A DNA stretch of 55,658 nt from a virus (taxonomy: Duplodnaviria; Caudoviricetes). Where the stretch lies: positions 1 to 55,658 of the IMG/VR virus record IMGVR_UViG_3300025687_000056; one strand, 5' to 3'. Below the pieces are notes generated by a model that saw only the letters and a program-made list of their open reading frames with translations, searched no databases and was not told where the DNA came from. Below are positions 25,429-52,376 of this stretch, in pieces. The position numbers and the translations under genes are program-made. The number at the start of each line of letters is the position of its first letter. Within the stretch, counting starts at the first letter, position 1.

Positions 25429-25442
25429 TTTATTATTTTATT

Positions 25443-31056: not shown

Positions 31057-31066
31057 GGTTTTTTAT

Positions 31067-31738
31067 TCAACGATTATCAATATGGATTATAACTTGATTA
31101 TAATATTCTATAAAATGTTCATTCCACAAATCCCATTTAATACCTTGACCATCAACTGAAAATAAATCATGGTTTGGGAATAATTTTAAATATATATCCC
31201 TAAACTCTCTAAATTGTTCTTTTTGTTTTGGAGTTTCTAAATGCCATTCACCTACTATTTTTCTAATATTTTCTTTTATCCACCAAATATTTTCTCTATT
31301 GAATATTTCATACTCACCTCCCTCACAATCTGTTTTTAAAAAATCAATGCTGGAAATGTTATATTCATCAATAAAAGTTTTAAATCTTATACTTTCAACT
31401 GTTTCAATTTTATTAACAGAACCATATACTTCAAATTCATCATACCCATCTATATTAGATATACCTTTAGGTATTATTGTATAATTTAAACCATTAAGAT
31501 TATTTTTTAAAGATGTTAATTCTTCTTTACTAGGTTCAAAACAGTAAACATGTTTTGGGTTTTTTTCTTTAATTACAAAAGGAAAAGGACCATTGCTAGC
31601 TCCAAAGTCAACAACAATATCATTTTCTTCAACTTCAAAAAGTCTAGTGTATAAATTATAGTTTGAAAATTCTTTAATAATTTGTTCTTTGTACCAATCA
31701 TTGGCGGTACCCCAATCAAAAGTTGTAAAATCTATCAT
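31067..31738 (-). CDS. FkbM family SAM-dependent methyltransferase
   Basis: VVDFGASNG, CFEP, IDFLKTDCEGGEY, GEWH. Confidence 0.9.
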   Translation of the reverse strand: MIDFTTFDWGTANDWYKEQIIKEFSNYNLYTRLFEVEENDIVVDFGASNGPFPFVIKEKNPKHVYCFEPSKEELTSLKNNLNGLNYTIIPKGISNIDGYDEFEVYGSVNKIETVESIRFKTFIDEYNISSIDFLKTDCEGGEYEIFNRENIWWIKENIRKIVGEWHLETPKQKEQFREFRDIYLKLFPNHDLFSVDGQGIKWDLWNEHFIEYYNQVIIHIDNR

Positions 31739-34017
31739 AATTTTAATTTATTAAATACTTGTAAGGGTGTTATTGATTTTTGACATATATGTTGATATTC
31801 AGTTCCTTTATAGACGGGGCACCAGTCCCAATCACCAGCATCAAAAATATGTACTGGATCATTCCAACATTTTATACATAAATCATTTGTTATTTTAGTT
31901 AAATTAGAAGTAAATTCATGCCCTTCTTTAACAAAACCATTAATCATATAAGTATGATTTCCTAATGCCCAATTGATCCAAGATAATCCTGAACCTAGTC
32001 CTATAAAGGCTTCGGCGTAATGTAAATAAGTAGCTACCTCATCCCATGATTTACCATACAGATTTAAACCATAAGATATTTTATATTCAGTTCCTGTTAT
32101 AACAACTATATCATAACCAATTTGTTTTAACATTTTAGCTAATGATTTCCAATTATTATAAGTCCATTCTTTACATCCTGAAGTTGCTTGTGGTCCAAAA
32201 ACTATATATTTTTTCTTTTTTGGTCTTAATCCTATATTAAAATTAATTCCATAGTTTAATTCTTTAAATTCTAAACCTAAAATATCTGTAGCTGTTTGTT
32301 GTAAAGGAATTAAATTTACTTGGTTAGGATACATTTCAAATTTATTCCATTTACCAGAATCTCCTTTAAACCATCCTATTTGATATTTAACATCACATTT
32401 TGTAGACTGGCCAGGTTCTAAAAATTCAATATCTTTATATGGTTCTAATTCTTTAAACCAATTATTATGGAATGTACTTAAAATAACTTTACAATTATGT
32501 TTTTTAGCAAAATCAACAGCATATGGTGCCCATGCTATTGTATCACCTATTGATTTTGAGTCTAAAGCTATTAATACCCGTTTATTATCTAAAGTAAATT
32601 CATCTATTATATCTCCATTAACTTTAATTTTCCATTTAGTATAATACACTCTAGAACATTTAGTCCACATATTATTTGTAATAGTATCTTTATGAACAAT
32701 ATTATTATTTTCATCTAAAAATTCAATATAATATTCCTGATCATTTTCTCCTGTGATTTCTACTTTAGGACCTTCTAAATAACTAATGTTTATTTTATTA
32801 TTTTGAGGGATATGGGGATGTTTTTTATGAAATTCTAATAATGTGTTATAACCTATTTTTCCTATATTTTCCCAACTAAAATTACGTCTAATTTCTTCTG
32901 ATTCTTTTAATGCTCTTTTTTTACATTCATCATGTTTTATATAAGAATACATCATCATTAATTGTAAATGATTAAAATCAGGTTCATAATAGTTACCTGG
33001 AAGATCACTCATTTTATATCTAGCATATGAGTTTATATCAGCTGGTTTTTCTCCTAAAATATTTACTGGTATTCCTTTATTTTGGGCAAATTCAAGTTGG
33101 CCTGAACAATTGGAGTAAATTGAAGGTGTTCCACAAGCCATTGCTTCAATTAAAGGTAAATTCCAACCTTCAGAACGGGAACAAGATAAAAATACATTAC
33201 ATGATTTTAATATTTTAATATAATCTTCTCTTGAAGGAAAATGAACTATTTTAATACGTGGATCTATTAAATTATAATGAGCTAGTCTTTCTTCTGTTGT
33301 TTCAAACCCATCAATTTCTTTACCAAAAACATTATCTATAGAAACAATTAAATCAACAGGTTCATTATTTGTAAATGTATTTAAAAATGTTTCAATAATT
33401 TCTTTAGTTGATTTTCTATAATCCCATCTACCTGCTAAAAAGAATTTAAATCTACCATCTGATGTTAGTTCATGGGTTGTTTCTTCAGGGTAGAAAATAT
33501 TAGTATCTACACCTTCAGGAACTACTTTAATTTTATCAGAATCATATCCTTGTTTTATTGTTACTTCTTTTTGCCATTTTGACGGAACCCATAATTCATC
33601 AAATTCTTTTAATTTTTCAAAATATTCTTCAGGTTGTAAAGTAGATTCCCAAACATTATAAGCTATTTTAGGACCAACATAACTATCATAAAAATAATGG
33701 TGATTAGTTTCACTTAATACTAAATTAATATCCGGTCTAAAATTTTTAGAGTCTGATGGGTACATTAATATATCAGTTCGATGTGGTTTTTGAGTCCATA
33801 AAGTTTGTTGATACAACATACTTTTATCAATATCAGTTAAATAACTCTCACCATTATGGGGAGTGTCAGACATACCCTCCCAAGAATTTCCTATAGAAAA
33901 ATTTCTAATTTTTAGTTGTAAATATTTATTTAATTCTCTAAAAAAATCTCTTGTATGGTGGTTATAACCTGTATTTCCTATATAAGAACAATGAGCGTAT
34001 ATTTTTAATTTATCCAT
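31735..34017 (-). CDS. GT4 glycosyltransferase fused to an AAH/TibC-like (autotransporter heptosyltransferase-type) protein O-glycosyltransferase
   Basis: N half: TGY, WVPS, GVD, RKS, SRSEGWNLPLIEAMACG (GT4 EX7E). C half: RVLI...SKSIGDTIAW, PLQQTATDILGL, FIGLGSGLSW..WA, and CIKCWND...WCP...ICQKSIT iron finger. Confidence 0.85.
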   Translation of the reverse strand: MDKLKIYAHCSYIGNTGYNHHTRDFFRELNKYLQLKIRNFSIGNSWEGMSDTPHNGESYLTDIDKSMLYQQTLWTQKPHRTDILMYPSDSKNFRPDINLVLSETNHHYFYDSYVGPKIAYNVWESTLQPEEYFEKLKEFDELWVPSKWQKEVTIKQGYDSDKIKVVPEGVDTNIFYPEETTHELTSDGRFKFFLAGRWDYRKSTKEIIETFLNTFTNNEPVDLIVSIDNVFGKEIDGFETTEERLAHYNLIDPRIKIVHFPSREDYIKILKSCNVFLSCSRSEGWNLPLIEAMACGTPSIYSNCSGQLEFAQNKGIPVNILGEKPADINSYARYKMSDLPGNYYEPDFNHLQLMMMYSYIKHDECKKRALKESEEIRRNFSWENIGKIGYNTLLEFHKKHPHIPQNNKINISYLEGPKVEITGENDQEYYIEFLDENNNIVHKDTITNNMWTKCSRVYYTKWKIKVNGDIIDEFTLDNKRVLIALDSKSIGDTIAWAPYAVDFAKKHNCKVILSTFHNNWFKELEPYKDIEFLEPGQSTKCDVKYQIGWFKGDSGKWNKFEMYPNQVNLIPLQQTATDILGLEFKELNYGINFNIGLRPKKKKYIVFGPQATSGCKEWTYNNWKSLAKMLKQIGYDIVVITGTEYKISYGLNLYGKSWDEVATYLHYAEAFIGLGSGLSWINWALGNHTYMINGFVKEGHEFTSNLTKITNDLCIKCWNDPVHIFDAGDWDWCPVYKGTEYQHICQKSITPLQVFNKLKL

Positions 34018-34558
34018 TTATAAATTTATCAATAAAACTTTCTATATTATTTGACCACATTATCATAGCATTATCTTTAATTTTTTGTTCATCCCAGTTC
34101 CACCAAGAAATTAATAATAATTTTTTAATTTGTTCTTCTGTAAATCTATATTTTACAATCTTGCCTGGGTTTCCTGCTATAATAGCATATGGGGGAACAT
34201 CTTTAGTTACTGTTGATCCAGCTGCTATAATGGAACCATTTGAAATTTTAACACCTGACATTATAGTTGATTTAGCACCAATCCAAACATCATTTTCAAT
34301 TATAATGTTTCCTTTACAAGTTGGATGTCCCATATCCATATGCATTTGAGCAATTTCAGGAGTAACAGGTCCCCATAATTGAGAAGATGTAGTTATCCAA
34401 TCAGATCTATGGTTAGCATGAAGAAAAAAGTTACAATCTCTTCCAATTGAATTATATTTACCTAAAATTATTTTATAATCATCACTCCATGATATAATAT
34501 TAACATTACGATCAAAGTACGTACCTATATCTGATATCCATAAATGTATATTTTCCAT
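34010..34558 (-). CDS. hexapeptide-repeat (LbH) O-acetyltransferase, CatB/Vat-like
   Basis: IGKY-like N part, IENDVWIG, IAAGSTVTKDVPPYAIIAGNPG..VKYRF, WWNW. Confidence 0.88.
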   Translation of the reverse strand: MENIHLWISDIGTYFDRNVNIISWSDDYKIILGKYNSIGRDCNFFLHANHRSDWITTSSQLWGPVTPEIAQMHMDMGHPTCKGNIIIENDVWIGAKSTIMSGVKISNGSIIAAGSTVTKDVPPYAIIAGNPGKIVKYRFTEEQIKKLLLISWWNWDEQKIKDNAMIMWSNNIESFIDKFING

Positions 34559-34564
34559 AATATT

Positions 34565-35353
34565 TTATGTTTTATGAAGTTTAAATTCATCATCATAAGA
34601 AATCCAATAAGTATAATTATTAGATATTAAGGATAAAATAGATCTAAATAAATATTTTTCATTCCAATCAAAAAAGATCCACACATCTTGAGGGGACTCA
34701 GTTAAAGCAAAATCAACAATATATTCATTTCTGACATCATATATATCATATCCTAAATTTACAATTTCATGAGTAAAATCAATTTGAACTTGTTCAATAT
34801 CTTTATAATTATTACTTAAAACATGAGGTAATGAACCTAACTTATTATAAACTTCATTTAATACTTTAGTTGAAGATATTCCGGTGGTGTGTCCTAAATG
34901 TTTTTTGTTATTACACCAACCATTAGCTTCTCTAACAACCATTCCAAAATAACCACAATTTGGAGAAGTTAAAAATTTATTTTTAAGATATATGTCCCAA
35001 TTATCCTCAACAAAAAAATAATCATCTTCATTAAAAATAAAATAATCATATTTACTTCTATGTTTTTCAAATAATTCTGAAAAGGCAGCAAAACTCATTC
35101 CTATATTATTTCTAAAATTTATCTCAATTTCAGTACCGTTAATAAATTTAGGTACTATTTTAAAGATTTCAGAGACATATTCATAATCTTCTTCTCTAAT
35201 ATTAAAAGTAAAAATAACTTTTGATAAAGAATTTTTTATTTTATATAAATATTCTATTTGTTTTTTAAGCAAAAAAAGTTTATCATTAGTATATTCAGGA
35301 AGTTGTTTACGTCTTTCACCTAAATAAAAGTTAATAATATAACAGGTTTTCAT
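34565..35353 (-). CDS. putative GT-A fold glycosyltransferase
   Basis: RNNIGMSF...YDYFIFNEDDY motif; first gene of the glycan operon. Confidence 0.6.
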   Translation of the reverse strand: MKTCYIINFYLGERRKQLPEYTNDKLFLLKKQIEYLYKIKNSLSKVIFTFNIREEDYEYVSEIFKIVPKFINGTEIEINFRNNIGMSFAAFSELFEKHRSKYDYFIFNEDDYFFVEDNWDIYLKNKFLTSPNCGYFGMVVREANGWCNNKKHLGHTTGISSTKVLNEVYNKLGSLPHVLSNNYKDIEQVQIDFTHEIVNLGYDIYDVRNEYIVDFALTESPQDVWIFFDWNEKYLFRSILSLISNNYTYWISYDDEFKLHKT

Positions 35354-36294: not shown

Positions 36295-36639
36295 TTATGT
36301 AGTTATATTAGTAATAGTAAAAGTAGTTCCAGGTGATAAAGCTTCTAATTGATTTACTACTTCTGATGTTACCCAATATAAATACTTATCTGTTACATTT
36401 GTTCCAAAAGTATCAATAGGAGAAGATCCTGTTATATAAAAACCTATACTAGTTATATGTCTATCAGCTCCACCCATAGTAGGGATAGAACTAGTTACAA
36501 ATGTCATATAATCCTTATACATTCTAGTTTCAACAGGAATTTCATCTCCTGTAGAAGCTAAATAAGGAGTTATTCTAAAATAAGGAGCATCATAACTAGC
36601 GTTATTGTAAGTAAAAGTACCTGTGGCTTGTATTCCCAT
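36295..36639 (-). CDS. fibre-associated hypothetical protein
   Basis: 114-aa T/S-rich ORF starting 2 nt after the giant fibre stop. Confidence 0.65.
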
Positions 36640-36641: not shown

Positions 36642-39600
36642 TTATTTATTTTTTAATTTTTCAATTTCTTGTTTTAAGTTATCTATTTGGTCTTGTTGTT
36701 CTTTAATACCTTCAATTAACAGACCTACTAAGTTACCATATGCTACTGATAAATATCCTTCAGAATCAGTTGAAACTGCTTCTGGGGCTACTTTTTCAAT
36801 TTCTTGGGCAATAACACCCATTTTTCTCTTAGTTTGATCAGTATCCGTTTTTAAGAAAGTAACACCTCTAATTTCTTTAATTTTTTCTATAGCATTTTCA
36901 ATTACTTGAATTTCAGTTTTCTTTCTAATATCTGAAGATGCTATGATATCTCCTGAGGCATATATTGAATCACCTGATACATCTAGAGCTACATGTAATG
37001 GATAACTTGGAGCTGCTGTTCCAATACCTACTCTTTTGTCGTTTCTAACTATTAGAATACTAGTTCTAGAATCATCAACAAATTGAGCACAATAAGTAGC
37101 AGAAGTTGTTCCTGTACCTCTAACAGCAAATTCTGTGGATGATGGAGGAGTGTTAGTTGAAACATCATATCCTACAAATACACCTTTATCACGACTAACA
37201 GTATCAGTATCCATTAAGATTGACTTATATGCTCCTGAACCAGCTCCGTAGTTGTAGCCAGCAAATTGAGTATAAGATGTATTACTGTATGGGAAAATAA
37301 ATCCAGAAGCAGAACCGCCTGTTTGACCACATCCAAAGAAGGCATAAGTGTCGTCTCTGAAGTCCATAATTGAGGTTCCATTGCCTGTTTCTACTACAAA
37401 GTTTTTAGTTGCGGATGTAGTACCTGATCCTTTAACACTTAATGTAGCATTAGCTGAAGCTCCGCTTCCTACTTTTAAATAGGATCCATCAAATGTTAAA
37501 TTAGCTTCACCATTAATAGTTGATGTACCAGTAGCTGTTAATACATAATTGTTTGTATTGTTAGATATAGTAGCAGCACCACTTGTACCTGATGAACCTG
37601 ATGTACCTGATGAGCCGCTAGTTCCTGATGAACCACTTGTACCACTAGCTCCAGCAGCACCTGAGGTACCAGATGAACCACTTGATCCTGAGGTACCAGA
37701 TGAACCACTTGATCCTGATGTTCCTGAGCTTCCACTTGTTCCACTTGTTCCAGCAGCTCCTGTTGCACCTGTTGCTCCTGAAGTACCACTTGATCCTGAT
37801 GAACCACTAGTTCCTGAACTTCCGCTTGAACCTGATGTTCCTGAGCTTCCTGAAGTACCAGATGAACCGCTTGTTCCTGAAGTACCTGCTGCACCTGCAG
37901 CACCTGTTGCTCCTGAGGTTCCTGATGAACCTGATGAGCCACTTGTTCCGCTTGAGCCACTTGACCCAGATGTTCCTGAACTGCCTGATGTACCAGATGT
38001 ACCTGATGTTCCTGAAGCACCACTAGCTCCTGAACTTCCACTTGTACCACTTGAACCTGAAGAGCCTGAAGTTCCTGAAGAACCTGAAGAACCTGAAGTT
38101 CCGCTTGAACCTGAAGTTCCGCTTGAACCTGATGTTCCGCTTGAACCTGATGTTCCTGAAGCACCTGGAGAACCAGTAGCTCCTGATGTACCTGAAGAGC
38201 CTGAGCTTCCACTAGTTCCTGAAGAACCTGAAGAGCCACTTGTTCCGCTTGAACCAGAGGTACCTGAAGAACCAGAGGTACCTGATGCGCCTGGAGAACC
38301 AGTTGCTCCTGAAGTACCTGAACTTCCTGATGAGCCACTTGTTCCGCTTGATCCTGATGAACCTGATGTTCCTGAACTTCCGCTTGTTCCTGATGACCCT
38401 GAAGTACCACTAGTACCTGGAGTACCCGGGGAACCAGTTGCTCCAGATGTTCCGCTTGAACCTGAAGAACCGCTTGTTCCACTTGATCCTGATGAGCCGC
38501 TTGTTCCTGAAGAACCTGATGTTCCACTACTTCCGCTTGTTCCTGAAGTACCAGGTGTTCCTGGAGAACCAGTAGCGCCTGATGTTCCTGATGAACCTGA
38601 TGAACCACTAGTTCCGCTTGAACCAGATGAGCCTGATGTTCCTGAAGAGCCTGATGTTCCTGAAGAGCCTGATGTACCGCTTGTACCTGCTGCTCCTGTA
38701 GCACCTGATGTACCTGAAGTACCATTAACACCACTTATACCTGAAGTACCAGATGATCCAGATGATCCAGATGTTCCAGATGAGCCACTAGAACCTGAAG
38801 TTCCTGATGAACCTGATGTTCCTGAACTTCCGCTTGTTCCGCTTGAGCCTGAGGTACCACTTGTACCAGCAGCTCCTGTAGCACCTGATGTTCCACTTGA
38901 ACCTGACGAACCACTAGTTCCACTTGAACCTGAGCTTCCGCTTGTTCCTGATGAACCGCTAGTTCCTGAAGAACCTGATGTTCCAGATGAACCACTTGTT
39001 CCTGATGAACCTGATGAGCCTGAAGTTCCTGATGAGCCGGATGAACCTGAAGTACCTGAACTACCACTAGTTCCTGATGAACCACTAGTACCTGAGTTAC
39101 CTGATGTTCCACTTGATCCACTTGAACCTGAAGTACCTGATGAGCCTGAAGAACCTGATGTTCCAGATGAGCCGCTTGTTCCTGATGAGCCTGATGTACC
39201 TGATGATCCTGAACTACCACTAGTCCCACTTGAACCTGAAGAGCCTGAAGTTCCTGATGATCCAGATGTTCCAGATGAACCTGAACTTCCTGATGTCCCA
39301 GATGAACCTGAACTTCCTGATGTTCCACTTGAGCCTGAAGTTCCAGAAGAACCTGATGTACCGCTTGTACCTGCTGCTCCTGTAGCACCTGATGTACCTG
39401 AGGAACCAGATGAGCCGCTTGTTCCACTAGAACCTGAGCTTCCACTTGTTCCACTTGAACCTGATGTTCCTGAACTACCGCTTGTTCCTGAGCTTCCTGA
39501 ACTACCTGAAGTTCCTGATGAGCCTGATGAACCTGAAGTACCTGAACTACCACTTGTGCCTGAAGAACCGCTTGTTCCTGATGAACCACTAGTTCCATTA

Positions 39601-42600
39601 ACACCACTTATACCTGAGGTACCACTGCTTCCTGATGAGCCAGAAGTACCTGATGAGCCACTAGAACCTGAAGTTCCAGAGCTTCCGCTTGTTCCTGATG
39701 AACCGCTAGTTCCTGATGATCCTGAGCTACCTGATGTACCACTTGATCCTGAAGAGCCTGATGTACCTGATGAACCAGAAGTTCCAGATGTTCCCGATGA
39801 ACCTGAACTACCAGATGTTCCAGAAGAACCTGAAGAACCTGATGTTCCACTTGAGCCTGATGTTCCTGAAGAGCCTGATGTTCCAGATGAACCACTTGAT
39901 CCAGAAGTTCCGCTTGAACCAGATGAACCAGAAGTACCTGATGAGCCACTTGTTCCTGATGAACCTGAAGTGCCACTTGAACCGCTTGTTCCAGATGAGC
40001 CAGATGATCCTGAAGTACCTGAAGAACCTGAGCTTCCTGATGTTCCTGAAGAACCACTAGTACCTGATGAACCAGAAGTACCTGATGAACCACTTGAACC
40101 ACTTGTTCCACTTGAACCACTTGAACCTGATGTTCCTGAACTGCCGCTAGTTCCACTTGAACCTGATGTTCCTGAAGAACCTGAAGTACCACTACTTCCG
40201 GATGAACCAGAAGTACCTGAACTACCTGATGAACCTGAAGTACCAGATGAGCCTGATGTACCTGAAGAACCACTTGTTCCACTCGAACCAGATGATCCTG
40301 AAGTTCCTGAAAAACCACTTGAGCCTGATGTTCCTGAAGAACCTGAAGTGCCGCTTGAACCAGAAGTTCCGCTTGAACCACTTGTTCCATTAACACCTGA
40401 TATACCTGAGGTACCAGAGCTACCACTTGAACCACTTGTACCTGATGAACCACTTGAGCCTGATGTTCCAGAGCTTCCACTTGTGCCTGAAGAACCACTT
40501 GTTCCTGATGAACCACTAGTTCCTGATGATCCTGAACTACCGCTAGTTCCGCTTGAACCTGAAGAACCTGAGGTGCCAGACGAGCCTGAACTACCTGATG
40601 TACCAGAAGAACCGCTTGTTCCTGATGAGCCTGATGTTCCAGATGAACCACTTGAACCGCTTGTTCCAGATGAGCCAGATGATCCTGAAGTACCTGAGCT
40701 GCCTGAAGTACCAGATGAACCACTTGTTCCACTTGAACCGCTTGTTCCACTTGAACCACTAGAGCCGCTTGTACCTGATGAACCGCTTGAACCTGATGTT
40801 CCACTAGAACCTGAAGTACCAGATGAGCCTGAAGTACCACTACTTCCTGATGAACCAGAAGTGCCTGAGCTACCTGAAGAACCTGATGTTCCAGATGAAC
40901 CTGAAGTTCCACTTGAACCGCTTGTGCCGCTTGAACCAGATGATCCTGAAGTTCCTGAAGAACCACTTGATCCACTTGTTCCGCTTGAACCTGATGTACC
41001 ACTAGAACCTGATGTTCCGTTTACACCACTTATACCTGAAGTACCACTTGATCCACTTGAACCACTAGTACCTGATGAACCTGATGAGCCAGAAGTTCCT
41101 GAAGAACCTGAAGTTCCTGATGAGCCACTTGTCCCAGAGCTTCCGCTAGTTCCAGAAGAACCAGAAGAACCGCTTGTTCCACTTGAACCAGAAGATCCAG
41201 AAGTTCCGCTTGAACCACTTGTTCCGCTTGAACCAGATGTTCCTGATGAACCGCTTGAGCCTGATGTTCCACTTGAGCCTGAACTACCTGATGTACCAGA
41301 AGAACCACTTGAACCTGAAGTACCAGAACTACCTGATGTTCCACTTGAACCTGAACTTCCGCTTGTTCCGGAAGAGCCTGAGCTACCTGAAGTACCTGAG
41401 CTACCTGAGGTTCCAGATGAACCGCTTGTACCACTTGAACCTGAGCTACCTGAAGTACCACTACTTCCTGATGAACCAGAAGTACCTGATGAGCCACTTG
41501 TTCCTGATGAACCTGAAGTGCCACTTGAACCACTAGTTCCACTTGAACCGCTTGAACCTGATGTACCACTAGAACCTGAAGAACCGGATGTTCCGCTAGA
41601 TCCTGATGTTCCAGAACTACCGCTAGTTCCTGAAGAACCGCTAGTTCCATTTACACCGCTTATACCTGATGTTCCTGATGAACCTGAGCTTCCGCTTGTT
41701 CCAGAAGAACCTGAACTACCTGAAGTTCCTGAAGAACCTGAAGTGCCACTTGAACCGGATGTTCCTGATGAGCCACTTGAACCTGATGTTCCACTTGAAC
41801 CTGATGAACCTGAAGTACCTGATGAGCCACTTGTTCCTGATGAGCCTGATGAACCGGATGTTCCTGAGCTACCTGAAGAGCCACTTGTACCAGAAGAGCC
41901 TGATGTTCCACTTGAACCAGATGATCCAGAAGTTCCACTTGAACCACTTGAACCTGAAGTACCAGATGAACCACTAGTACCTGATGAACCAGAAGTTCCT
42001 GATGAGCCACTACTACCTGAAGTACCAGATGAGCCACTACTTCCTGATGTTCCTGAACTACCACTTGTTCCTGATGAACCACTAGTACCTGAACTACCGC
42101 TTGTTCCTGAAGAGCCACTTGAACCACTAGTTCCTGATGAACCGGAACTACCTGAGGTACCTGATGAGCCACTTGTTCCGCTTGAACCTGATGTTCCTGA
42201 TGAACCAGATGAACCAGATGTTCCTGAGCTTCCTGAAGAGCCGCTTGTACCTGATGATCCTGAAGTTCCGCTTGAACCACTAGTTCCATTTACACCACTT
42301 ATACCTGATGTACCAGATGATCCTGAAGAACCGCTAGTACCTGATGAACCTGAAGAACCTGATGTTCCTGATGAGCCAGATGTTCCTGATGAGCCAGATG
42401 TTCCTGAGCTACCTGATGTACCTGAACTGCCTGATGAACCGCTAGTACCACTTGATCCTGAAGAACCGGATGTTCCAGATGAGCCAGAAGTACCTGATGA
42501 GCCAGATGTTCCAGATGAACCACTAGAACCTGATGTTCCTGAAGAACCAGAGCTACCTGATGTTCCTGAAGAACCTGAACTACCGCTAGTTCCTGAAGAA

Positions 42601-45600
42601 CCGCTAGTTCCAGATGAACCTGATGAACCAGATGTTCCGCTACTTCCAGAAGAACCAGAAGTACCACTTGAACCTGAAGTTCCTGAGCTTCCTGAAGTTC
42701 CAGATGAACCGGATGAACCACTAGTTCCGCTTGAACCTGATGAACCAGATGTTCCACTAGAACCTGATGTTCCAGATGAACCACTTGTTCCGCTTGAACC
42801 ACTAGTTCCAGATGAACCACTTGATCCTGAAGTTCCTGATGAACCGCTTGAACCACTAGTTCCGCTTGAACCTGATGTACCACTAGAACCTGAAGTTCCT
42901 GAAGAACCACTTGTTCCATTAACACCACTTATACCTGAAGTACCGCTACTACCACTTGAGCCGCTTGTACCTGATGAGCCTGATGAACCACTTGTTCCTG
43001 AAGAACCACTTGAACCACTTGTGCCTGATGAACCAGAGGTTCCGCTTGAACCTGAAGTACCAGAACTACCTGAAGTACCACTTGAACCTGAGCTACCACT
43101 AGTTCCTGATGAACCAGAGCTGCCTGAAGTTCCTGAACTACCTGAAGTACCTGATGAACCACTTGTACCTGAGCTTCCTGAACTACCTGAAGTACCACTA
43201 CTTCCTGATGAACCTGAAGTACCAGATGAACCACTTGTACCACTTGAGCCTGAAGTTCCTGATGAACCAGATGAACCGCTAGTACCAGATGAACCGGATG
43301 AACCACTAGTTCCGCTTGAACCTGAAGTTCCGCTTGAACCACTAGTACCTGAACTACCTGAAGTGCCAGATGAACCAGATGAACCTGATGTTCCGCTTGA
43401 GCCTGAGCTGCCTGATGTTCCGCTTGAACCTGAAGTACCTGAAGAACCACTTGTTCCTGAGCTGCCTGAACTACCTGAAGTTCCTGATGAGCCACTTGAA
43501 CCTGATGTACCTGAACTACCACTTGTTCCTGATGAACCACTAGTTCCATTCACACCACTTATACCTGAAGTACCTGAGCTGCCTGAAGAGCCGCTTGTAC
43601 CTGATGAACCACTAGAACCTGATGTTCCAGAGCTTCCACTTGTTCCTGATGAGCCTGAGGTTCCGCTTGAACCACTTGTTCCTGAAGAACCACTTGAACC
43701 ACTTGTACCTGATGAACCACTTGATCCAGATGTTCCTGATGAACCTGAAGTGCCAGAACTACCTGATGTTCCGCTTGAACCTGATGAGCCACTTGTTCCT
43801 GAAGAACCGCTAGAGCCACTTGTTCCACTAGAACCTGATGTTCCAGAGCTTCCGCTTGTTCCTGATGAACCTGAGCTGCCTGATGTTCCAGATGAGCCTG
43901 AGCTGCCTGATGTTCCTGATGATCCAGATGTTCCACTAGATCCAGATGTTCCAGATGAACCTGATGAACCTGAAGTTCCTGAGGATCCAGATGAACCTGA
44001 TGTACCACTAGATCCGCTTGTTCCGCTTGATCCTGAAGTTCCTGATGAACCAGATGTTCCTGATGAACCGGATGAGCCTGAAGTACCTGATGAACCTGAA
44101 CTACCACTAGTTCCTGATGAACCTGAAGTACCTGAACTACCACTAGTTCCTGAAGAGCCTGATGTACCATTTACACCAGATATACCTGAAGTACCTGATG
44201 AGCCTGAAGAGCCGCTTGTACCTGATGAGCCTGATGAGCCTGAAGTTCCTGAACTACCACTTGTTCCAGATGAACCAGAGGTTCCAGATGAACCAGATGA
44301 GCCTGATGTTCCAGATGAACCTGAGCTTCCTGAAGTACCAGATGAACCAGATGAACCTGAGGTTCCAGATGATCCACTAGTACCACTAGAACCTGAAGTT
44401 CCTGATGAGCCACTTGAACCACTTGTACCTGATGAACCACTTGATCCTGATGTTCCTGAAGAACCAGATGTTCCTGAAGAACCGCTTGTTCCGCTTGAAC
44501 CTGAAGTACCACTTGAACCTGATGAGCCTGATGTTCCACTTGAACCTGATGAGCCTGATGTTCCACTAGATCCACTAGTTCCACTGGACCCGCTAGTTCC
44601 GCTAGAACCTGAAGAGCCACTTGTACCTGATGAACCTGAGCTACCTGATGTACCACTTGATCCTGAAGTGCCTGATGAACCACTAGTTCCGCTTGATCCG
44701 CTAGAACCTGAAGTACCTGAGGAGCCTGATGAGCCTGATGTACCAGATGAACCGCTTGTACCACTTGAACCAGAAGTTCCACTTGAACCACTTGTTCCAT
44801 TAACACCGCTTATACCTGAAGTACCACTTGAACCAGATGATCCACTAGTACCAGATGAGCCGGATGTACCTGAACTTCCGCTTGTACCGCTTGATCCTGA
44901 AGAACCTGATGTTCCACTTGAACCTGAAGAACCAGAAGTACCTGAACTTCCAGAAGTTCCACTTGAACCAGAAGTTCCGCTTGATCCTGATGAACCTGAT
45001 GTACCTGATGAGCCTGAGCTGCCTGAGGTACCACTAGAACCAGATGTTCCTGAAGAACCTGAAGTTCCAGAAGAACCGCTTGTTCCGCTTGATCCAGATG
45101 AACCGCTTGTTCCGCTTGATCCTGAAGAGCCACTTGTGCCTGAGCTACCTGATGTACCAGAAGAACCTGATGTTCCTGATGAACCGCTTGAGCCACTAGT
45201 TCCTGATGAACCAGAGCTTCCTGATGTACCTGATGAACCTGAAGTTCCAGAAGAACCGCTTGTTCCATTTACACCACTTATACCTGATGTACCTGATGAT
45301 CCTGATGAACCACTAGTACCTGATGAGCCTGATGAACCTGAAGTACCACTAGAACCAGATGTTCCAGATGAACCTGAAGTACCTGAAGAACCTGAAGAAC
45401 CAGATGTTCCTGATGAACCGCTTGATCCAGATGTTCCTGAAGAACCTGAAGTTCCAGAAGAACCGCTTGTTCCGCTTGAACCACTAGATCCTGAAGTACC
45501 ACTTGATCCTGAAGAACCGCTTGTGCCTGAAGAACCTGAAGTTCCAGATGAGCCTGATGTTCCTGAAGAACCTGAAGTTCCGCTTGATCCGCTTGATCCA

Positions 45601-48600
45601 GATGTTCCTGAAGAACCTGATGAACCAGATGTTCCTGAAGAACCTGATGAACCACTTGTTCCTGATTCTCCTGAACTACCTGAACTACCTGAGGTGCCTG
45701 ATGAACCAGAGGTTCCACTAGAACCACTAGTACCATTTACACCACTTATACCTGATGTACCACTGCTTCCTGATGAGCCAGAAGTACCTGATGAACCACT
45801 TGATCCGCTTGTTCCGCTTGATCCTGAAGTTCCGCTTGAGCCACTTGTACCTGAAGAGCCAGAGGTTCCACTAGAACCACTTGATCCAGAAGTTCCAGAA
45901 GAACCTGATGAACCTGAAGTACCAGATGAACCGCTTGTTCCACTTGAACCTGAAGTTCCGCTTGAGCCTGAGCTACCACTAGTTCCTGATGATCCTGATG
46001 AACCACTTGTTCCGCTTGAGCCACTTGATCCAGATGTTCCTGAAGAGCCACTTGTACCTGATGATCCAGATGTTCCACTGCTTCCTGATGAGCCTGATGT
46101 TCCTGAAGAACCTGAACTACCTGAAGTTCCTGATGAACCACTAGTCCCTGATTCTCCTGAACTTCCACTGGAGCCTGAAGTACCAGATGAACCACTTGTT
46201 CCATTAACACCACTTATACCTGAGCTTCCGCTTGTTCCTGATGAACCAGATGAACCACTTGTTCCTGATGAACCGCTTGAACCTGAAGTTCCGCTTGAGC
46301 CACTTGTACCTGATGAGCCTGAACTACCTGAGGTGCCTGAAGAACCACTTGAGCCTGATGTACCTGATGAACCTGAAGTACCGGATGAACCGCTTGTTCC
46401 GCTTGAACCAGATGAGCCACTTGTTCCTGATGAACCTGAGCTACCAGATGTTCCTGATGAACCGCTTGTTCCGCTTGAACCTGAAGTTCCAGAAGAGCCA
46501 CTTGTTCCACTTGAACCTGAGCTACCTGAAGTGCCTGATGAACCGCTTGAGCCAGATGTTCCTGAAGAACCACTTGTACCTGATGAACCTGAGCTACCAG
46601 ATGTTCCTGAAGAACCACTTGAACCGCTAGTTCCTGATGAACCGCTTGTTCCGCTTGAGCCAGATGTACCATTTACACCTGATATACCTGAAGTACCAGA
46701 GCTGCCTGAAGAGCCGCTTGTACCTGATGAGCCTGATGAGCCTGAAGTTCCTGAGCTTCCACTGGAACCTGAAGTGCCAGATGAGCCGCTTGAGCCTGAT
46801 GTACCGCTTGAACCAGATGTTCCTGAAGAGCCGCTTGAGCCAGATGTTCCTGATGAACCACTTGAGCCAGATGTTCCACTTGATCCTGAAGAACCAGAAG
46901 TACCTGATTCTCCTGAACTTCCGCTTGAACCACTAGTTCCTGATGAACCAGAACTACCTGAGGTACCAGATGAACCTGAAGTACCATTAACACCTGATAT
47001 GCCTGAGGTACCTGAACTGCCGCTTGAGCCTGATGTACCACTTGAGCCTGAAGAACCAGAAGTGCCTGATTCTCCTGATGAACCACTTGAGCCAGAGGTT
47101 CCTGATGAACCACTTGAGCCTGATGTACCACTAGAACCTGATGTTCCATTTACACCACTTATACCTGAAGTACCTGAGCTGCCTGAAGAGCCACTTGTAC
47201 CTGATGAGCCTGAAGTTCCTGATGAACCTGATGTACCACTAGATCCGCTTGAACCTGATGTACCGCTTGAACCTGATGAGCCTGATGTTCCTGATGAACC
47301 ACTAGTGCCACTAGAACCTGAAGTACCAGAGGATCCTGAAGAACCTGAAGTGCCTGATGAACCTGATGAGCCTGAAGTGCCAGAAGAACCGCTTGTTCCG
47401 CTTGAGCCTGAACTTCCTGATGTGCCACTTGAACCGGAACTGCCTGATGTTCCTGATGAACCACTTGTTCCGCTTGAGCCTGATGTACCACTTGAACCGG
47501 AACTACCTGAGGTTCCTGATGAACCGCTTGAGCCTGAAGTTCCACTAGAACCAGAAGTTCCAGATGAACCACTAGTTCCTGATGAACCAGATGAACCAGA
47601 AGTACCAGATGAGCCTGAACTACCTGATGTTCCTGATGAACCAGAAGTACCAGATGAACCAGAAGTTCCATCTATACCACTAGTTCCAGAACTACCTGAG
47701 CTTCCGCTTGTTCCTGATGAACCGCTTGAACCTGAAGTACCAGAACTACCTGAAGTGCCTGATGAACCTGAAGTGCCAGAACTACCTGAACTTCCGCTAG
47801 TTCCTGAAGAACCTGATGAACCGCTAGTACCAGAACTACCTGATGTTCCGTCTATACCTGAAGTACCAGATGAGCCTGAACTACCTGAAGTTCCAGATGA
47901 GCCGCTTGAGCCACTTGTTCCTGAACTTCCACTTGTACCAGAACTACCTGATGTTCCTGATGAGCCTGATGTTCCACTTGAACCACTTGAGCCTGATGTA
48001 CCACTTGATCCTGATGAGCCAGAAGTACCATCTATACCTGAAGTGCCAGACGATCCTGATGAACCACTAGTACCTGATGAACCTGATGAACCACTTGTTC
48101 CGCTTGAACCTGAGCTTCCGCTTGTTCCTGATGAGCCACTTGAACCAGATGTTCCTGAAGAACCGCTTGTTCCGCTTGAGCCTGAACTGCCTGAAGTACC
48201 AGATGAACCTGATGAACCACTTGTTCCGCTTGAACCAGAGGTTCCTGAAGAGCCACTTGTTCCACTAGAGCCTGAGCTTCCGCTTGTTCCTGATGAACCG
48301 CTTGAACCTGAAGTTCCTGATGAGCCTGATGTACCAGATGAGCCTGATGTACCACTTGAGCCTGATGAGCCAGAGGTACCATCTATACCTGAAGTACCAG
48401 AAGAACCACTTGAACCTGAGGTACCTGATGAACCTGAACTTCCGCTAGTTCCTGAACTACCTGAAGTGCCAGATGAGCCACTAGTTCCGCTTGATCCTGA
48501 AGAACCAGATGTACCTGAAGATCCTGATGAACCTGAAGTTCCAGATGAACCACTAGTTCCACTTGAACCAGAGGTACCACTTGAGCCTGAACTTCCACTT

Positions 48601-49190
48601 GAACCAGATGAGCCTGAGGTTCCTGATGAGCCTGAGGTTCCTGATGAACCTGAGGTTCCACTAGAGCCAGAACTACCTGAAGTTCCGCTAGAGCCGGAAC
48701 TACCTGAAGTTCCACTAGAGCCAGAACTACCTGAAGTTCCTGATGAACCACTAGTTCCACTTGAGCCTGATGAGCCAGATGTTCCTGAACTACCTGAAGT
48801 TCCTGATGTTCCAGATGAAGGCATATCAGAATATTCTACTTCTCCAGTAGCAGGTATATAAGTTACAACATATGAAGGACTAGCTTCATATGGTAAAGTT
48901 TGAATTATAATAGGTTGGGAAGAACCAGAGATTACTAATGAGCCGGTAATTACTGCTGAACCAGAAAATGGGAAACCTATACCTGAACCTGATATAAAGA
49001 CTGTTACTCCTTCTGTTGAAGAAATAATATCTGTATAAGCATCAACTGAGCCTGTAAAATTAATAAAAGGAGCACTAGATTTAACTAGTGACCCAGTATA
49101 ATATATATCAATAGTACCATTACCACTTCCTGCTGTATCCGCTTGGAAAACCCCTACTGGTACCTGATCAAGGAATCTAACTTTAGCCAT
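36642..49190 (-). CDS. giant Gly-X-Ser repeat fibre protein (4182 aa) with C-terminal peptidase S74 intramolecular chaperone
   Basis: About 126-aa N-terminal domain; Gly-X-Y repeat at aa 127-3871; beta-rich tip (TINGEANLTFDG, VGIGTAAP); SDIRKK...GVIAQE...YLSVAY...LIEGIKE plus coiled coil (36642-36935). Class II motif at 49202-49209. Confidence 0.9.
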   Translation of the reverse strand: MAKVRFLDQVPVGVFQADTAGSGNGTIDIYYTGSLVKSSAPFINFTGSVDAYTDIISSTEGVTVFISGSGIGFPFSGSAVITGSLVISGSSQPIIIQTLPYEASPSYVVTYIPATGEVEYSDMPSSGTSGTSGSSGTSGSSGSSGTSGSSGTSGSSGSSGTSGSSGSSGTSGSSGSSGTSGSSGTSGSSGTSGSSGSSGSSGSSGTSGSSGTSGSSGTSGSSGSSGTSGSSGSSGTSGSSGTSGSSGTSGSSGSSGTSGSSGSSGTSGIDGTSGSSGSSGTSGSSGTSGSSGTSGSSGSSGTSGSSGSSGTSGSSGTSGSSGTSGSSGSSGTSGSSGSSGTSGSSGTSGSSGSSGTSGSSGSSGTSGSSGSSGTSGSSGSSGTSGIDGTSGSSGSSGTSGSSGSSGTSGSSGTSGSSGTSGSSGTSGSSGSSGTSGSSGSSGTSGIDGTSGSSGTSGSSGSSGTSGSSGSSGTSGSSGTSGSSGTSGSSGSSGTSGSSGSSGTSGIDGTSGSSGTSGSSGTSGSSGSSGTSGSSGSSGTSGSSGTSGSSGTSGSSGSSGTSGSSGSSGTSGSSGTSGSSGTSGSSGSSGTSGSSGSSGTSGSSGTSGSSGSSGTSGSSGSSGTSGSSGTSGSSGTSGSSGSSGTSGSSGSSGTSGSSGTSGSSGTSGSSGSSGTSGISGVNGTSGSSGTSGSSGSSGTSGSSGSSGESGTSGSSGSSGTSGSSGSSGTSGISGVNGTSGSSGTSGSSGSSGTSGSSGSSGESGTSGSSGSSGTSGSSGSSGTSGSSGSSGTSGSSGTSGSSGSSGTSGSSGSSGTSGSSGSSGTSGSSGSSGTSGISGVNGTSGSSGTSGSSGTSGSSGSSGTSGSSGSSGTSGSSGTSGSSGSSGTSGSSGSSGTSGSSGTSGSSGTSGSSGTSGSSGSSGTSGSSGSSGTSGSSGTSGSSGTSGSSGSSGTSGSSGSSGTSGSSGTSGSSGSSGTSGSSGSSGTSGSSGISGVNGTSGSSGTSGSSGSSGESGTSGSSGTSGSSGSSGTSGSSGSSGTSGSSGTSGSSGTSGSSGSSGTSGSSGSSGTSGSSGSSGTSGSSGTSGSSGTSGSSGSSGTSGSSGSSGTSGSSGTSGSSGTSGSSGTSGSSGSSGTSGSSGSSGTSGISGVNGTSGSSGTSGSSGTSGSSGSSGESGTSGSSGSSGTSGSSGSSGTSGSSGSSGTSGSSGTSGSSGTSGSSGTSGSSGSSGTSGSSGSSGTSGSSGTSGSSGTSGSSGSSGTSGSSGSSGTSGSSGTSGSSGTSGSSGSSGTSGSSGSSGTSGISGVNGTSGSSGTSGSSGTSGSSGSSGTSGSSGSSGTSGSSGTSGSSGTSGSSGSSGTSGSSGSSGTSGSSGTSGSSGTSGSSGTSGSSGSSGTSGSSGSSGTSGSSGTSGSSGTSGSSGSSGTSGSSGSSGTSGSSGTSGSSGTSGSSGSSGTSGISGVNGTSGSSGTSGSSGTSGSSGTSGSSGSSGTSGSSGSSGTSGSSGTSGSSGTSGSSGSSGTSGSSGSSGTSGSSGTSGSSGTSGSSGSSGTSGSSGSSGTSGSSGTSGSSGTSGSSGTSGSSGSSGTSGSSGSSGTSGSSGTSGSSGTSGSSGSSGTSGSSGSSGTSGSSGSSGTSGSSGTSGSSGTSGSSGSSGTSGSSGSSGTSGISGVNGTSGSSGTSGSSGTSGSSGTSGSSGSSGTSGSSGSSGTSGSSGTSGSSGTSGSSGTSGSSGSSGTSGSSGSSGTSGSSGTSGSSGTSGSSGSSGTSGSSGSSGTSGSSGTSGSSGTSGSSGSSGTSGSSGSSGTSGSSGTSGSSGTSGSSGSSGTSGSSGSSGTSGSSGTSGSSGTSGSSGTSGSSGSSGTSGSSGSSGTSGISGVNGTSGSSGTSGSSGTSGSSGSSGTSGSSGSSGTSGSSGTSGSSGTSGSSGSSGTSGSSGSSGTSGSSGTSGSSGTSGSSGTSGSSGSSGTSGSSGSSGTSGSSGTSGSSGTSGSSGSSGTSGSSGSSGTSGSSGTSGSSGTSGSSGSSGTSGSSGSSGTSGSSGTSGSSGTSGSSGTSGSSGSSGTSGSSGSSGTSGSSGSSGTSGISGVNGTSGSSGTSGSSGTSGSSGTSGSSGSSGTSGSSGSSGTSGSSGTSGSSGTSGSSGTSGSSGSSGTSGSSGSSGTSGSSGTSGSSGTSGSSGSSGTSGSSGSSGTSGSSGTSGSSGSSGTSGSSGSSGTSGSSGSSGTSGSSGTSGSSGTSGSSGSSGTSGSSGSSGTSGSSGTSGSSGTSGSSGTSGSSGSSGTSGSSGSSGTSGISGVNGTSGSSGTSGSSGTSGSSGSSGTSGSSGSSGTSGSSGTSGSSGTSGSSGSSGTSGSSGSSGTSGSSGTSGSSGTSGSSGTSGSSGSSGTSGSSGSSGTSGSSGTSGSSGTSGSSGSSGTSGSSGSSGTSGSSGTSGSSGSSGTSGSSGSSGTSGSSGTSGSSGSSGTSGSSGSSGTSGSSGTSGSSGTSGSSGSSGTSGSSGSSGTSGISGVNGTSGSSGTSGSSGTSGSSGTSGSSGSSGTSGSSGSSGTSGSSGTSGSSGTSGSSGTSGSSGSSGTSGSSGSSGTSGSSGTSGSSGTSGSSGSSGTSGSSGSSGTSGSSGTSGSSGSSGTSGSSGSSGTSGSSGSSGTSGSSGTSGSSGTSGSSGSSGTSGSSGSSGTSGSSGTSGSSGTSGSSGTSGSSGSSGTSGSSGSSGTSGISGVNGTSGSSGTSGSSGTSGSSGSSGTSGSSGSSGTSGSSGTSGSSGTSGSSGSSGTSGSSGSSGTSGSSGTSGSSGTSGSSGSSGTSGSSGSSGTSGSSGTSGSSGTSGSSGTSGSSGSSGTSGSSGSSGTSGSSGTSGSSGTSGSSGSSGTSGSSGSSGTSGSSGSSGTSGSSGTSGSSGTSGSSGTSGSSGSSGTSGSSGSSGTSGISGVNGTSGSSGTSGSSGTSGSSGTSGSSGFSGTSGSSGSSGTSGSSGTSGSSGTSGSSGSSGTSGSSGSSGTSGSSGTSGSSGTSGSSGTSGSSGSSGTSGSSGSSGTSGSSGTSGSSGTSGSSGSSGTSGSSGSSGTSGSSGTSGSSGTSGSSGTSGSSGSSGTSGSSGSSGTSGSSGTSGSSGTSGSSGSSGTSGSSGSSGTSGTSGSSGTSGSSGSSGTSGSSGSSGTSGSSGTSGSSGTSGSSGSSGTSGSSGSSGTSGISGVNGTSGSSGTSGSSGTSGSSGTSGSSGSSGTSGSSGSSGTSGSSGTSGSSGTSGSSGSSGTSGSSGSSGTSGATGAAGTSGTSGSSGTSGSSGTSGSSGSSGTSGSSGSSGTSGSSGTSGSSGSSGTSGSSGSSGTSGSSGTSGSSGTSGSSGSSGTSGSSGSSGTSGNSGTSGSSGTSGSSGTSGSSGSSGTSGSSGSSGTSGSSGTSGSSGTSGSSGTSGSSGSSGTSGSSGSSGTSGATGAAGTSGTSGSSGTSGSSGTSGSSGTSGSSGSSGTSGSSGSSGTSGISGVNGTSGTSGATGAAGTSGTSGSSGTSGSSGTSGSSGSSGTSGSSGSSGTSGATGSPGTPGTSGTSGSSGTSGSSGTSGSSGSSGTSGSSGSSGTSGATGSPGTPGTSGTSGSSGTSGSSGTSGSSGSSGTSGSSGSSGTSGATGSPGASGTSGSSGTSGSSGTSGSSGSSGTSGSSGSSGTSGATGSPGASGTSGSSGTSGSSGTSGSSGTSGSSGSSGTSGSSGSSGTSGSSGASGASGTSGTSGTSGSSGTSGSSGSSGTSGSSGSSGTSGATGAAGAAGTSGTSGSSGTSGSSGTSGSSGSSGTSGSSGSSGTSGATGATGAAGTSGTSGSSGTSGSSGSSGTSGSSGSSGTSGAAGASGTSGSSGTSGSSGTSGSSGTSGAATISNNTNNYVLTATGTSTINGEANLTFDGSYLKVGSGASANATLSVKGSGTTSATKNFVVETGNGTSIMDFRDDTYAFFGCGQTGGSASGFIFPYSNTSYTQFAGYNYGAGSGAYKSILMDTDTVSRDKGVFVGYDVSTNTPPSSTEFAVRGTGTTSATYCAQFVDDSRTSILIVRNDKRVGIGTAAPSYPLHVALDVSGDSIYASGDIIASSDIRKKTEIQVIENAIEKIKEIRGVTFLKTDTDQTKRKMGVIAQEIEKVAPEAVSTDSEGYLSVAYGNLVGLLIEGIKEQQDQIDNLKQEIEKLKNK
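37578..48812 (-). repeat. 9-nt-period coding tandem repeat (~1248 Gly-X-Y triplets, mainly GSS/GTS)
   Basis: Gly at every third residue between aa 127 and 3871 (3744 residues apart, divisible by 3); no register break seen; synonymous codons vary widely. Confidence 0.95.
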
Positions 49191-49201
49191 TATTGTTTAC
49201 T

Positions 49202-49209
49202 ATAAATAT
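49202..49209 (-). promoter_or_regulatory. class II motif upstream of the giant fibre gene
   Basis: AATATTTATA with the 8-mer 11 nt upstream of the ATG at 49190. Confidence 0.7.
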
Positions 49210-52337: not shown

Positions 52338-52376
52338 ACCTTTTAGTTATAAATATTAAAAGGATATGGGAACGTT

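Follow-up and report, generated by a model that had tools for sequence, protein, structure and literature searches.

A stepped and graded GISGVNG motif along the collagen-like stalk of a giant T4-like phage fibre: candidate distance landmarks on a putatively glycosylated rod

Collagen-like phage fibres are usually treated as featureless spacers, and the locus described here raises the question of why such a stalk should carry one short motif again and again at exact, graded intervals. The window, by which we mean the whole stretch of 55,658 nt that was analysed, is an entire IMG/VR virus record (IMGVR_UViG_3300025687_000056) that was assembled from a metagenome and is estimated to be about 34% complete; its source is an uncultured T4-like phage. 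A single open reading frame (ORF) of the minus strand, 36642-49190, encodes the fibre and contains all 16 GISGVNG and four GIDG units, which an initial annotation had proposed as chain-registration points, hinges, or sites for a second modification or an accessory protein. The answer we favour, at somewhat short of an even chance, is that the GISGVNG units would be collars under selection, free of sugar and set at fixed distances along a trimeric stalk that is otherwise coated with glycans.

The stalk comprises 3747 residues in 1249 Gly-X-Y triplets without a single interruption. Besides 682 GSS, 496 GTS, 16 GIS and 16 GVN triplets, it holds 4 GID, 4 GES, 1 GFS, 1 GNS and 29 Ala/Pro-bearing triplets, with a total of six Pro, four Asp and four Glu, the last two making up its eight charged residues. 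Translation returns the 16 GISGVNG units, each 1 nt away from the position first assigned, and reproduces all their spacings, namely 162, 315, 468 (four times), 630, 621, 630, 630, 639, 630, 630, 792 and 873 nt, which are 54, 105, 156 (four times), 210, 207, 210, 210, 213, 210, 210, 264 and 291 residues, or, from N to C terminus, 18, 35, 52 (four times), 70, 69, 70, 70, 71, 70, 70, 88 and 97 triplets. The growth of the spacing toward the tip that had been claimed is equally evident (N-to-C Spearman rho 0.94), as are the four GIDG units with spacings of 351, 180 and 180 nt. Ala/Pro triplets had been placed near the tip only, and all 29 indeed lie in the distal sixth of the stalk, from triplet 1048 of 1249 (aa 3268, window position 39389) onwards. 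Within the stalk, every one of the 16 Val, all but one of the 17 Asn and 16 of the 20 Ile reside inside GISGVNG copies, and the other four Ile are in GID triplets. A chance origin of the markers is excluded, since nearly all stalk Val, Asn and Ile sit in these 16 copies.

Marker arrays also exist in other viral fibres. A degenerate DNA pattern for G-I-S-G-V-N-G-T-S-G, run on a viral contig collection, returned 96 stretches, from which 58 loci were merged, all from the 27 contigs that had two or more matches, while the other 38 stretches, mostly single matches, were left out; removal of nine near-duplicates gave 18 fibres that were analysed together with the window. Spacings in contig 07541_005699 are 33, 34, 36, 35, 52, 68, 68, 68, 69, 70, 71, 88, 89 and 89 triplets. 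Those in 42294_002487 (1406 triplets) begin with 34, 31, 33, 69, 67, 69, 69, 70, 50 and 52, and continue directly with 69, 52, 69, 53, 69, 52, 69, 87, 77 and 51. In 21961_000257, six spacings of 30-33 give way to mostly 48-53 and then to 70 triplets, and 34418_011550 shows groups of 30-34, 46-50, 62-67 and 81-83 triplets. When homologues and window are pooled, the modes lie near 17, 34, 51, 69 and 88 triplets, with a Rayleigh R of 0.62 at a period of 17.8-18.2 triplets (n = 140 in the strict set, and n = 207 in a loose set that adds the GISGIN and GISGVD variants; three non-integer spacings were excluded) and of 0.60 without the window. Every fibre with five or more spacings (11 of 11) has a positive rho for N-to-C growth, and in eight of these p is below 0.05. 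The comparison with homologous fibres that the initial annotation had called for thus yields spacings that are stepped, growing toward the tip and recurrent, not random.

These regularities are found in fibres that differ in their ends and in the grammar of their filler. The autocorrelation of the Thr/Ser filler peaks at lag 10 in the window and 07541_005699, at lags 8 and 3 in 42294, and at lag 3 in 21961 and 34418. No 17-18- or 35-triplet period and no ghost markers were detected in the Thr/Ser filler of the examined fibres, and the filler is not where the 17-18-triplet step comes from. The arrays sit behind N-terminal domains that are 98, 84, 80, 70 and 50% identical to that of the window, and also behind unrelated N-terminal domains (34418 and 32233 types; 23-27% identity over short stretches), and the tips that follow the arrays differ as well. 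In the contig whose N-terminal domain is 98% identical, the proximal stalk is arranged differently. Conservation of the motif extends to its flanks, with Thr at position -2 in 137 and Ser at position -5 in 134 of 138 markers.

Block length is kept as well. The four 52-triplet blocks of the window have an equal total despite differing inner layouts (10,8,12,10,8,2; 6,8,13,10,12,1; 17,12,10,10,1; and 10,10,12,10,7,1), and the blocks of the next main class, with lengths of 70, 69, 70, 70, 71, 70 and 70 triplets, show five layouts among seven. Shuffling pieces among blocks gave ranges as small in about 1e-4 (52-class) and 2e-4 (70-class) of 20,000 trials, which is a rough null, with blocks related by descent. 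Indels arise fast in these stalks: the near-identical contigs 34418_011550 and 34374_012237 differ by five synonymous and no amino-acid substitutions, and by in-frame indels of 19 and 10 triplets that fall inside blocks and change 50 into 69 and 66 into 56 triplets. The indel segments have neighbours of 88-92% identity at distances of 180 and 90 nt, and length polymorphism of the fibre is present in natural populations. In the window, the first 15 markers also fit a lattice of 17.45 triplets with a maximum deviation of 0.08 unit, matched by none of 2000 random sets, and the last marker lies off it.

Recent identical duplications, together with random spacing in homologues, would have reduced the markers to copying debris, and the DNA, like the homologous spacings, speaks otherwise. 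The 16 markers comprise 15 distinct 29-nt sequences. Between window blocks of equal length, identity is 78-100% at the protein level and only 58-71% at the DNA level, and where residues agree the codons agree at a rate of 0.34-0.47, when codon usage predicts 0.38; blocks 10 and 12, for instance, have the same 210 aa with a DNA identity of 71%. Strong self-alignments of the stalk DNA are all about 70% identical, a global offset scan of the stalk found no DNA-level period (codon identity 0.37-0.41 at all offsets), and no exact DNA repeat within the 11.2 kb exceeds 62 nt, compared with a maximum of 39 +/- 4 nt after synonymous-codon shuffling. The residual DNA homology among blocks is a trace only, and the blocks are not recent copies. 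More generally, the four main residue types over the 3747 residues (37572-48812) are encoded with nearly fully scrambled synonymous codons, the origin of which may lie in age or in selection against recombination. The idea of functional landmarks is therefore supported by a peptide that is invariant amid randomised codons, and further by the recurrence of stepped spacing in homologues and by the kept block length. We take the markers to be selected because the peptide and its flanks are invariant in this randomised context, because stepped spacing recurs across fibres with different ends and filler grammar, and because the window keeps its block lengths although indels arise fast.

The gene neighbourhood suggests what might coat the stalk between the markers. 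A sugar cassette downstream of the fibre gene encodes a nucleotidyltransferase and HAD phosphatase fusion, a 360-aa unknown protein, an FkbM methyltransferase, a glycosyltransferase (GT) fusion, a hexapeptide acyltransferase and a 262-aa unknown protein. The GT fusion is a 760-aa protein whose C-terminal half resembles TibC/Aah-like protein O-heptosyltransferases. It matches TIGR04414 at 194.1 bits, against an equivalog cut-off of 200 (E 3.3e-57, model positions 11-371 of 374), and TibC (4rap) with E 3.7e-29 over TibC residues 40-380, with the four iron-finger cysteines (C-x2-C ... C ... C) aligned. TibC is reported to be a ring-shaped dodecamer that heptosylates adhesin serines, and the four iron-finger cysteines are needed for the dodecamer (PMC4358343). 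Copies with 67-70% identity lie 5-10 kb downstream of the fibre in all three searchable homologous records. Among 22 TibC-like loci with at least 7 kb of upstream DNA, drawn from 80 loci examined of the 181 viral contigs with a relative, 13 hold a Gly-X-Y run of at least 30 triplets and nine do not. It is probable that the 760-aa fusion modifies the stalk.

Taken together, these features can be accommodated as follows. Each GISGVNG would open a block. Successive classes of block length differ by about 17-18 triplets, which in a collagen triple helix would correspond to about 15 nm, with the short blocks toward the virion and the long ones toward the tip, and selection would maintain both motif and block length. 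The Ser/Thr stalk would be O-glycosylated by the TibC-like heptosyltransferase cassette just downstream. In a trimer, each marker would present six aliphatic side chains and three Asn, and because the markers are the stalk's only hydroxyl-free positions, they would form a bare, chemically distinct collar in a sugar coat. Such collars may serve as fixed-distance landmarks, each acting as a joint, as a point of nucleation or register, or as a docking site. The motif conservation, the stepped and graded spacing and the length-keeping are observed directly, as is the anatomy of the fibre; the triple helix, the glycosylation and the role of the collars are what we infer.

Several points weigh against this interpretation. 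The putative triple helix would have to be built of essentially Pro-free GSS/GTS, with 6 Pro in 3747 residues. Class widths are looser in homologues (about +/- 2-3 triplets), with off-class spacings such as 41, 43, 56, 60 and 77 triplets. The motif search presupposed the motif, so its conservation is partly a matter of ascertainment; blocks and fibres share descent, so that counts are non-independent and the order and classes could be inherited. The GIDG units lie off the window lattice, and seven homologues show no significant long-range lattice, as between 7 and 256 of 300 random sets fitted equally well; the general feature is the stepped class of each spacing, not a long-range phase. Registration alone needs no exact distances, because the markers of a homotrimer align at any spacing, and it fails to explain the exact, quantised distances. 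Finally, the marker DNA is conserved beyond what the protein needs, and the resulting GGT-ATA-AGY bias is unexplained by any role at the protein level.

This nucleotide signature leads to the first rival explanation, that the markers act mainly in RNA, as stops that catch frameshifted ribosomes, with the peptide as the price of stop placement. Among 138 markers, the preceding Ser is TCA in 123, the Gly is GGT in 132, the Ile is ATA in 130, the Ser after Ile is AGY in 97 and the next Gly is GGT in 104. All 16 window markers and 122 of 145 homologue markers use ATA for Ile, a codon with a share of 32% in the phage's other genes, and ATA-AGY is used in 12 of 16 window markers against 1 of 57 Ile-Ser pairs in 28 other genes. 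A stop arises in the +1 frame only where an aliphatic codon with TA or TG as its last two letters precedes a codon that begins with A or G, a pattern that GIS, GVN and GID follow, and ATA-AGY, GTA-AAY and ATA-GAY each yield TAA or TAG in that frame. The +1 frame is otherwise open for about 3700 codons because the G-S/T-S code cannot form a +1 stop; the stalk has only 25 stops in the +1 frame, all at Ile/Val markers, and 176 in the +2 frame. At least one +1 stop is present in 151 of 161 markers, against 53% expected from codon usage, and in 14 of 16 in the window. The two possible +1 stops of a marker are negatively associated (odds ratio 0.15, p 5e-7), as if substituting for each other, and +1 stops exceed synonymous shuffles in six of seven stalks. 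These observations support a putative frameshift-catching role, at least as a second constraint. As the main explanation we nevertheless hold it to be unlikely, since it predicts neither quantised nor graded spacing nor length-keeping. It leaves the fixed GGT before Ile and the preceding TCA unexplained, and a single Ile-Ser(AGY) would suffice, yet a two-triplet motif with Val and Asn/Asp is kept. Moreover, two of the 16 window markers lack a +1 stop, markers within one lineage are non-independent, and +2 stops are below every shuffle in seven of seven stalks, which argues against a general selection for hidden stops. Catching of frameshifts may coexist with a collar function. As regards other signals in the marker DNA, the T4 late-promoter octamer has no match within the markers, and the ideas that the nucleotide core is an internal promoter, resembles a splice signal or serves as a recombination site were weighed on inspection and not adopted.

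A second alternative, which we judge about as unlikely as the first, is that the array reflects history and not function. An ancestral unit of about 17-18 triplets with one marker would have given rise, through duplications and marker losses, to blocks of 2-5 units; the plateaus would represent tandem amplification of whole blocks, and the class order would be inherited. Markers do occur every 15-18 triplets in 21963_001161 and every 33-38 in 27736_000027, and DNA identity of at least 85% is found at whole-block offsets of 35 (32233), 68-69 (07541_005699, 42294) and 50 and 100 triplets (21961). The alternating 52/69 super-repeat in 42294, the 19-triplet indel that turned a 50-block into a 69-block in the near-identical pair and the absence of a significant long-range lattice in the seven homologues point the same way. 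High-identity offsets are block-sized or scattered, and no preferred local duplication size of 17-18 triplets was seen. On the other hand, a neutral relic should decay; the filler is close to saturated at synonymous sites, yet the peptide of seven residues has not changed, nor have its flanks. The filler retains neither the period nor ghost markers, and blocks of different layouts have identical totals. In addition, the relative with the 98% identical N-terminal domain and a different proximal stalk implies that arrangements turn over quickly while classes persist.

A stronger version of the landmark idea, which we find more doubtful still, would make the fibre a length-coded rod of more than 1 um, with selected steps of about 15 nm, heptose-based glycans everywhere except at the markers, and collars that are read by a partner. 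The possible readers would include other copies of the fibre, leading to bundling or ordered folding, the ring-shaped TibC-like enzyme stepping along the rod, or the layers of the host envelope.

Less probable again is that the markers are sites of a second modification, such as N-glycosylation of the Asn in N-G-T, or docking sites for an accessory protein. The sequon-like N-G-T highlighted by the initial annotation is present in 16 of 16 markers, and as evidence of modification it adds nothing, because it results automatically from an Asn at Y ahead of a G-T-S triplet. In the loose variants (GISGIN and GISGVD), the second triplet has either Asn or Asp at Y; the Asp variants are not N-glycosylatable. 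No N-glycosyltransferase or oligosaccharyltransferase family was matched in the 31 proteins scanned against Pfam, in a record that holds about 34% of the genome. Small flanking proteins without a family match (36295-36639, 35615-36292, 34565-35353 and 29974-31056) might include a docking partner, although no candidate has been identified.

That the array or its exact spacing is an assembly artefact of a repetitive gene is very improbable: the window is a metagenome-assembled fragment whose long-range assembly lacks independent confirmation, because public runs give unitigs of only 93-188 nt with many spurious joints (sides of 20-34 nt, not trusted) and none bridges the array, but the DNA is non-repetitive at assembly scale (the longest exact repeat being the 62 nt given above), the frame is open for 4182 codons, an identical 17-marker pattern of a homologue occurs in contigs of three metagenomes (34418_011550, 25671_000670 and 07344_000078), and identical pieces cover 30 of 30 bins in four of four runs from four studies. 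Near-identical pieces of the stalk (38500-47500) are present in 20 public runs of 12 studies from 2016-2025, with freshwater, lagoon, estuary and marine sources, and the phage or its fibre appears to be widespread.

Table 1. Coordinates of the fibre gene, its parts, the marker units and the adjoining sugar cassette in the window.
Feature	Position (nt)	Strand	Basis or remark
Fibre gene	36642..49190	minus	Single ORF, 4182 aa + stop; Pfam Collagen and Peptidase_S74
N-terminal domain, presumed virion adaptor (aa 1-126)	48813..49190	minus	43 relatives
Stalk (aa 127-3873), 1249 Gly-X-Y triplets, no interruption	37572..48812	minus	Translation
Distal stalk zone with all 29 Ala/Pro-bearing triplets	37572..39389	minus	Triplet listing
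C-terminal 309 aa (aa 3874-4182), tip domain and intramolecular chaperone	36645..37571	minus	Similarity
Peptidase_S74 domain (aa 4086-4139)	36774..36935	minus	PF13884, E 1.4e-13, 51.3 bits (cut-off 22)
GIDG unit 1 (aa 268)	48378..48389	minus	
GIDG unit 2 (aa 385)	48027..48038	minus	
GIDG unit 3 (aa 445)	47847..47858	minus	
GIDG unit 4 (aa 505)	47667..47678	minus	
GISGVNG marker 1 (aa 676)	47145..47165	minus	
GISGVNG marker 2 (aa 730)	46983..47003	minus	Without +1-frame stop
GISGVNG marker 3 (aa 835)	46668..46688	minus	
GISGVNG marker 4 (aa 991)	46200..46220	minus	
GISGVNG marker 5 (aa 1147)	45732..45752	minus	
GISGVNG marker 6 (aa 1303)	45264..45284	minus	
GISGVNG marker 7 (aa 1459)	44796..44816	minus	
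GISGVNG marker 8 (aa 1669)	44166..44186	minus	
GISGVNG marker 9 (aa 1876)	43545..43565	minus	
GISGVNG marker 10 (aa 2086)	42915..42935	minus	
GISGVNG marker 11 (aa 2296)	42285..42305	minus	
GISGVNG marker 12 (aa 2509)	41646..41666	minus	
GISGVNG marker 13 (aa 2719)	41016..41036	minus	
GISGVNG marker 14 (aa 2929)	40386..40406	minus	Without +1-frame stop
GISGVNG marker 15 (aa 3193)	39594..39614	minus	
GISGVNG marker 16 (aa 3484)	38721..38741	minus	
Sugar cassette	28139..35353	minus	Pfam and NCBIfam matches; 2.6 kb downstream of fibre gene
760-aa fusion, GT4 glycosyltransferase + TibC/Aah-like protein O-heptosyltransferase (C-terminal half)	31735..34017	minus	

The fibre gene (Table 1) is surrounded by T4-like myovirus genes, including those for a gp23-type capsid protein (52.6% identical to its counterpart in Flavobacterium phage immuto), sheath, gp32, a UvsX-like protein, PhoH and ribonucleotide reductase; GC content rises from about 30% in the flanks to 48% in the stalk. 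The N-terminal domain has 43 relatives at E <= 0.001 among 1.84 billion representatives, many of which open other fibres, and no tblastn match among 50,697 GenBank phage records; its AlphaFold2 monomer (20-row alignment) is too poor for use (mean pLDDT 56.8, pTM 0.25). Collagen rises 0.286 nm per residue, at which the stalk would be about 1.07 um long. With Gly at every third residue over 1249 consecutive triplets, a Pfam match to Collagen (PF01391) and an adjacent trimerisation or registration domain in the form of the C-terminal Peptidase_S74 chaperone, the fibre conforms to the collagen-like type, except that the stalk lacks the imino-acid and charge content usual in stable bacterial and viral collagens. 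Viral collagens are tabulated at about 22% Pro in X in PMC3368898.

The chaperone part aligns with PDB 6f45, a long tail fiber distal subunit that forms a trimeric fibre end (E 2.2e-6). Self-cleavage of Peptidase_S74 domains takes place at their start, where the residues are kept, with S-S-D-I-R-K-K of the window aligned to S-S-D-R-R-I-K-K of 6f45. The tip domain is 55-56% identical to the ends of the non-collagen fibres P0002 and P0003 (2674-2854 aa), and tips are evidently exchanged between very different stalks. A search with the tip domain returned 16 giant homologues of 2300-4027 aa, of which P0002, P0003, P0004 and P0011 were inspected and are non-collagen.

Further observations concern the other frames and the surroundings of the gene. 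A plus-strand ORF of 3770 aa (37549-48861) is stop-free across the stalk, and a row of minus-strand +1-frame ORFs of 150-460 aa each (38735-47671) is bounded by the markers. Both the opposite-strand ORF and the +1-frame chain are mirror artefacts of the repeat that could mislead gene callers, and long ORFs in other frames of such fibre genes should be annotated as such. An AT-only octamer occurs 21 times in the window against 9.25 expected (e.g. 49201-49208, 27274-27281, 25442-25449 and 52348-52355), with 20 of 21 occurrences on the plus strand, so that its reverse complement lies on the coding strand; many of these sites are 8-40 nt upstream of minus-strand gene starts, and the octamer may be this phage's late-gene signal. 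At 3911-5257 (minus), a 448-aa protein carries an EF-hand calcium-binding motif (aa 365-386), which is unusual for a phage replication-gene neighbourhood.

Among known systems, animal fibrillar collagens with D-periodicity and BclA-type bacterial collagens with Thr glycosylation are long Gly-X-Y helices in which such features matter for assembly or stability. The animal D-period is 78 triplets, whereas the step here is about 17-18 triplets with graded multiples, in a stalk essentially without Pro or charge, and nothing seen in the window fibre points to a staggered lateral packing. Close phage counterparts are EPclA and EPclB, collagen-like side-tail proteins of E. coli O157:H7 prophages, which, as described in PMC3368898, share with the window fibre globular ends, a Gly-X-Y stalk, separate trimerisation modules and length differences in multiples of three residues. 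They are trimeric phage fibre proteins, as the window fibre is predicted to be. According to the same source, their stalks are short (whole molecule about 55-62 nm), rich in Pro and charge (GPK, GPQ, GPA) and unglycosylated; the window stalk, in contrast, has 1249 triplets of mainly GSS/GTS, a stepped marker and an adjoining putative O-heptosyltransferase gene. The fibre shares the PF13884 end and the chaperone alignment with Peptidase_S74 phage fibres and spikes (e.g. PDB 6f45), but its closest tip-domain relatives (P0002-P0004) have repeat stalks that are not Gly-X-Y and lack markers. Like the TibC/Aah autotransporter heptosyltransferases (BAHT), whose substrates are Ser-rich repeat proteins and with which it aligns, the window enzyme adjoins the gene of a serine-saturated repetitive protein; the TibC/Aah substrate is a beta-helical adhesin (PMC4358343), whereas the presumed substrate here is a collagen-like phage fibre. 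Unlike TibC/Aah, the putative heptosyltransferase is fused to a GT4 domain.

Compared with GenBank phages, the DNA of one block matched only the GTS-rich fibres of a 735-kb uncultured phage, which have no marker arrays. In that phage (LR756501.1, 84349-125665), three fibre ORFs of 1665, 2373 and 2816 aa lack GISGVN arrays, and their GTS-rich Gly-X-Y segments alternate with globular domains. Right after the marker-bearing fibre gene of two other contigs (34418_011550, from 38907, and 25889_000138) lies a 121-triplet Gly-X-Y run without GSS or GTS, possibly a second, different collagen-like fibre. A literature search, with most subscription journals outside its coverage, found no account of the GISGVNG motif, nor of any phage collagen fibre with stepped spacing. 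Fibres of this general kind, collagen-like and ending in an S74 chaperone, are known from phages; the punctuated, stepped, graded and codon-scrambled Ser/Thr stalk is a form of them for which that search gave no precedent.

These fibres form a family of very long, Pro-free Ser/Thr stalks that links a punctuation motif and stepped, kept block lengths to an enzyme of an adhesin-glycosylating type. They provide a natural example of a highly repetitive protein made from non-repetitive DNA, and judging by the codons of the markers, a protein motif may be shaped by reading-frame hygiene. Should the spacing prove functional, the fibre would be a rare protein whose higher-order repeat encodes distance. 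Were the length-coded rod true, the gene would encode a molecular ruler, in which the same 21 nt that mark each distance would also hold the stalk's only possible +1-frame stops.

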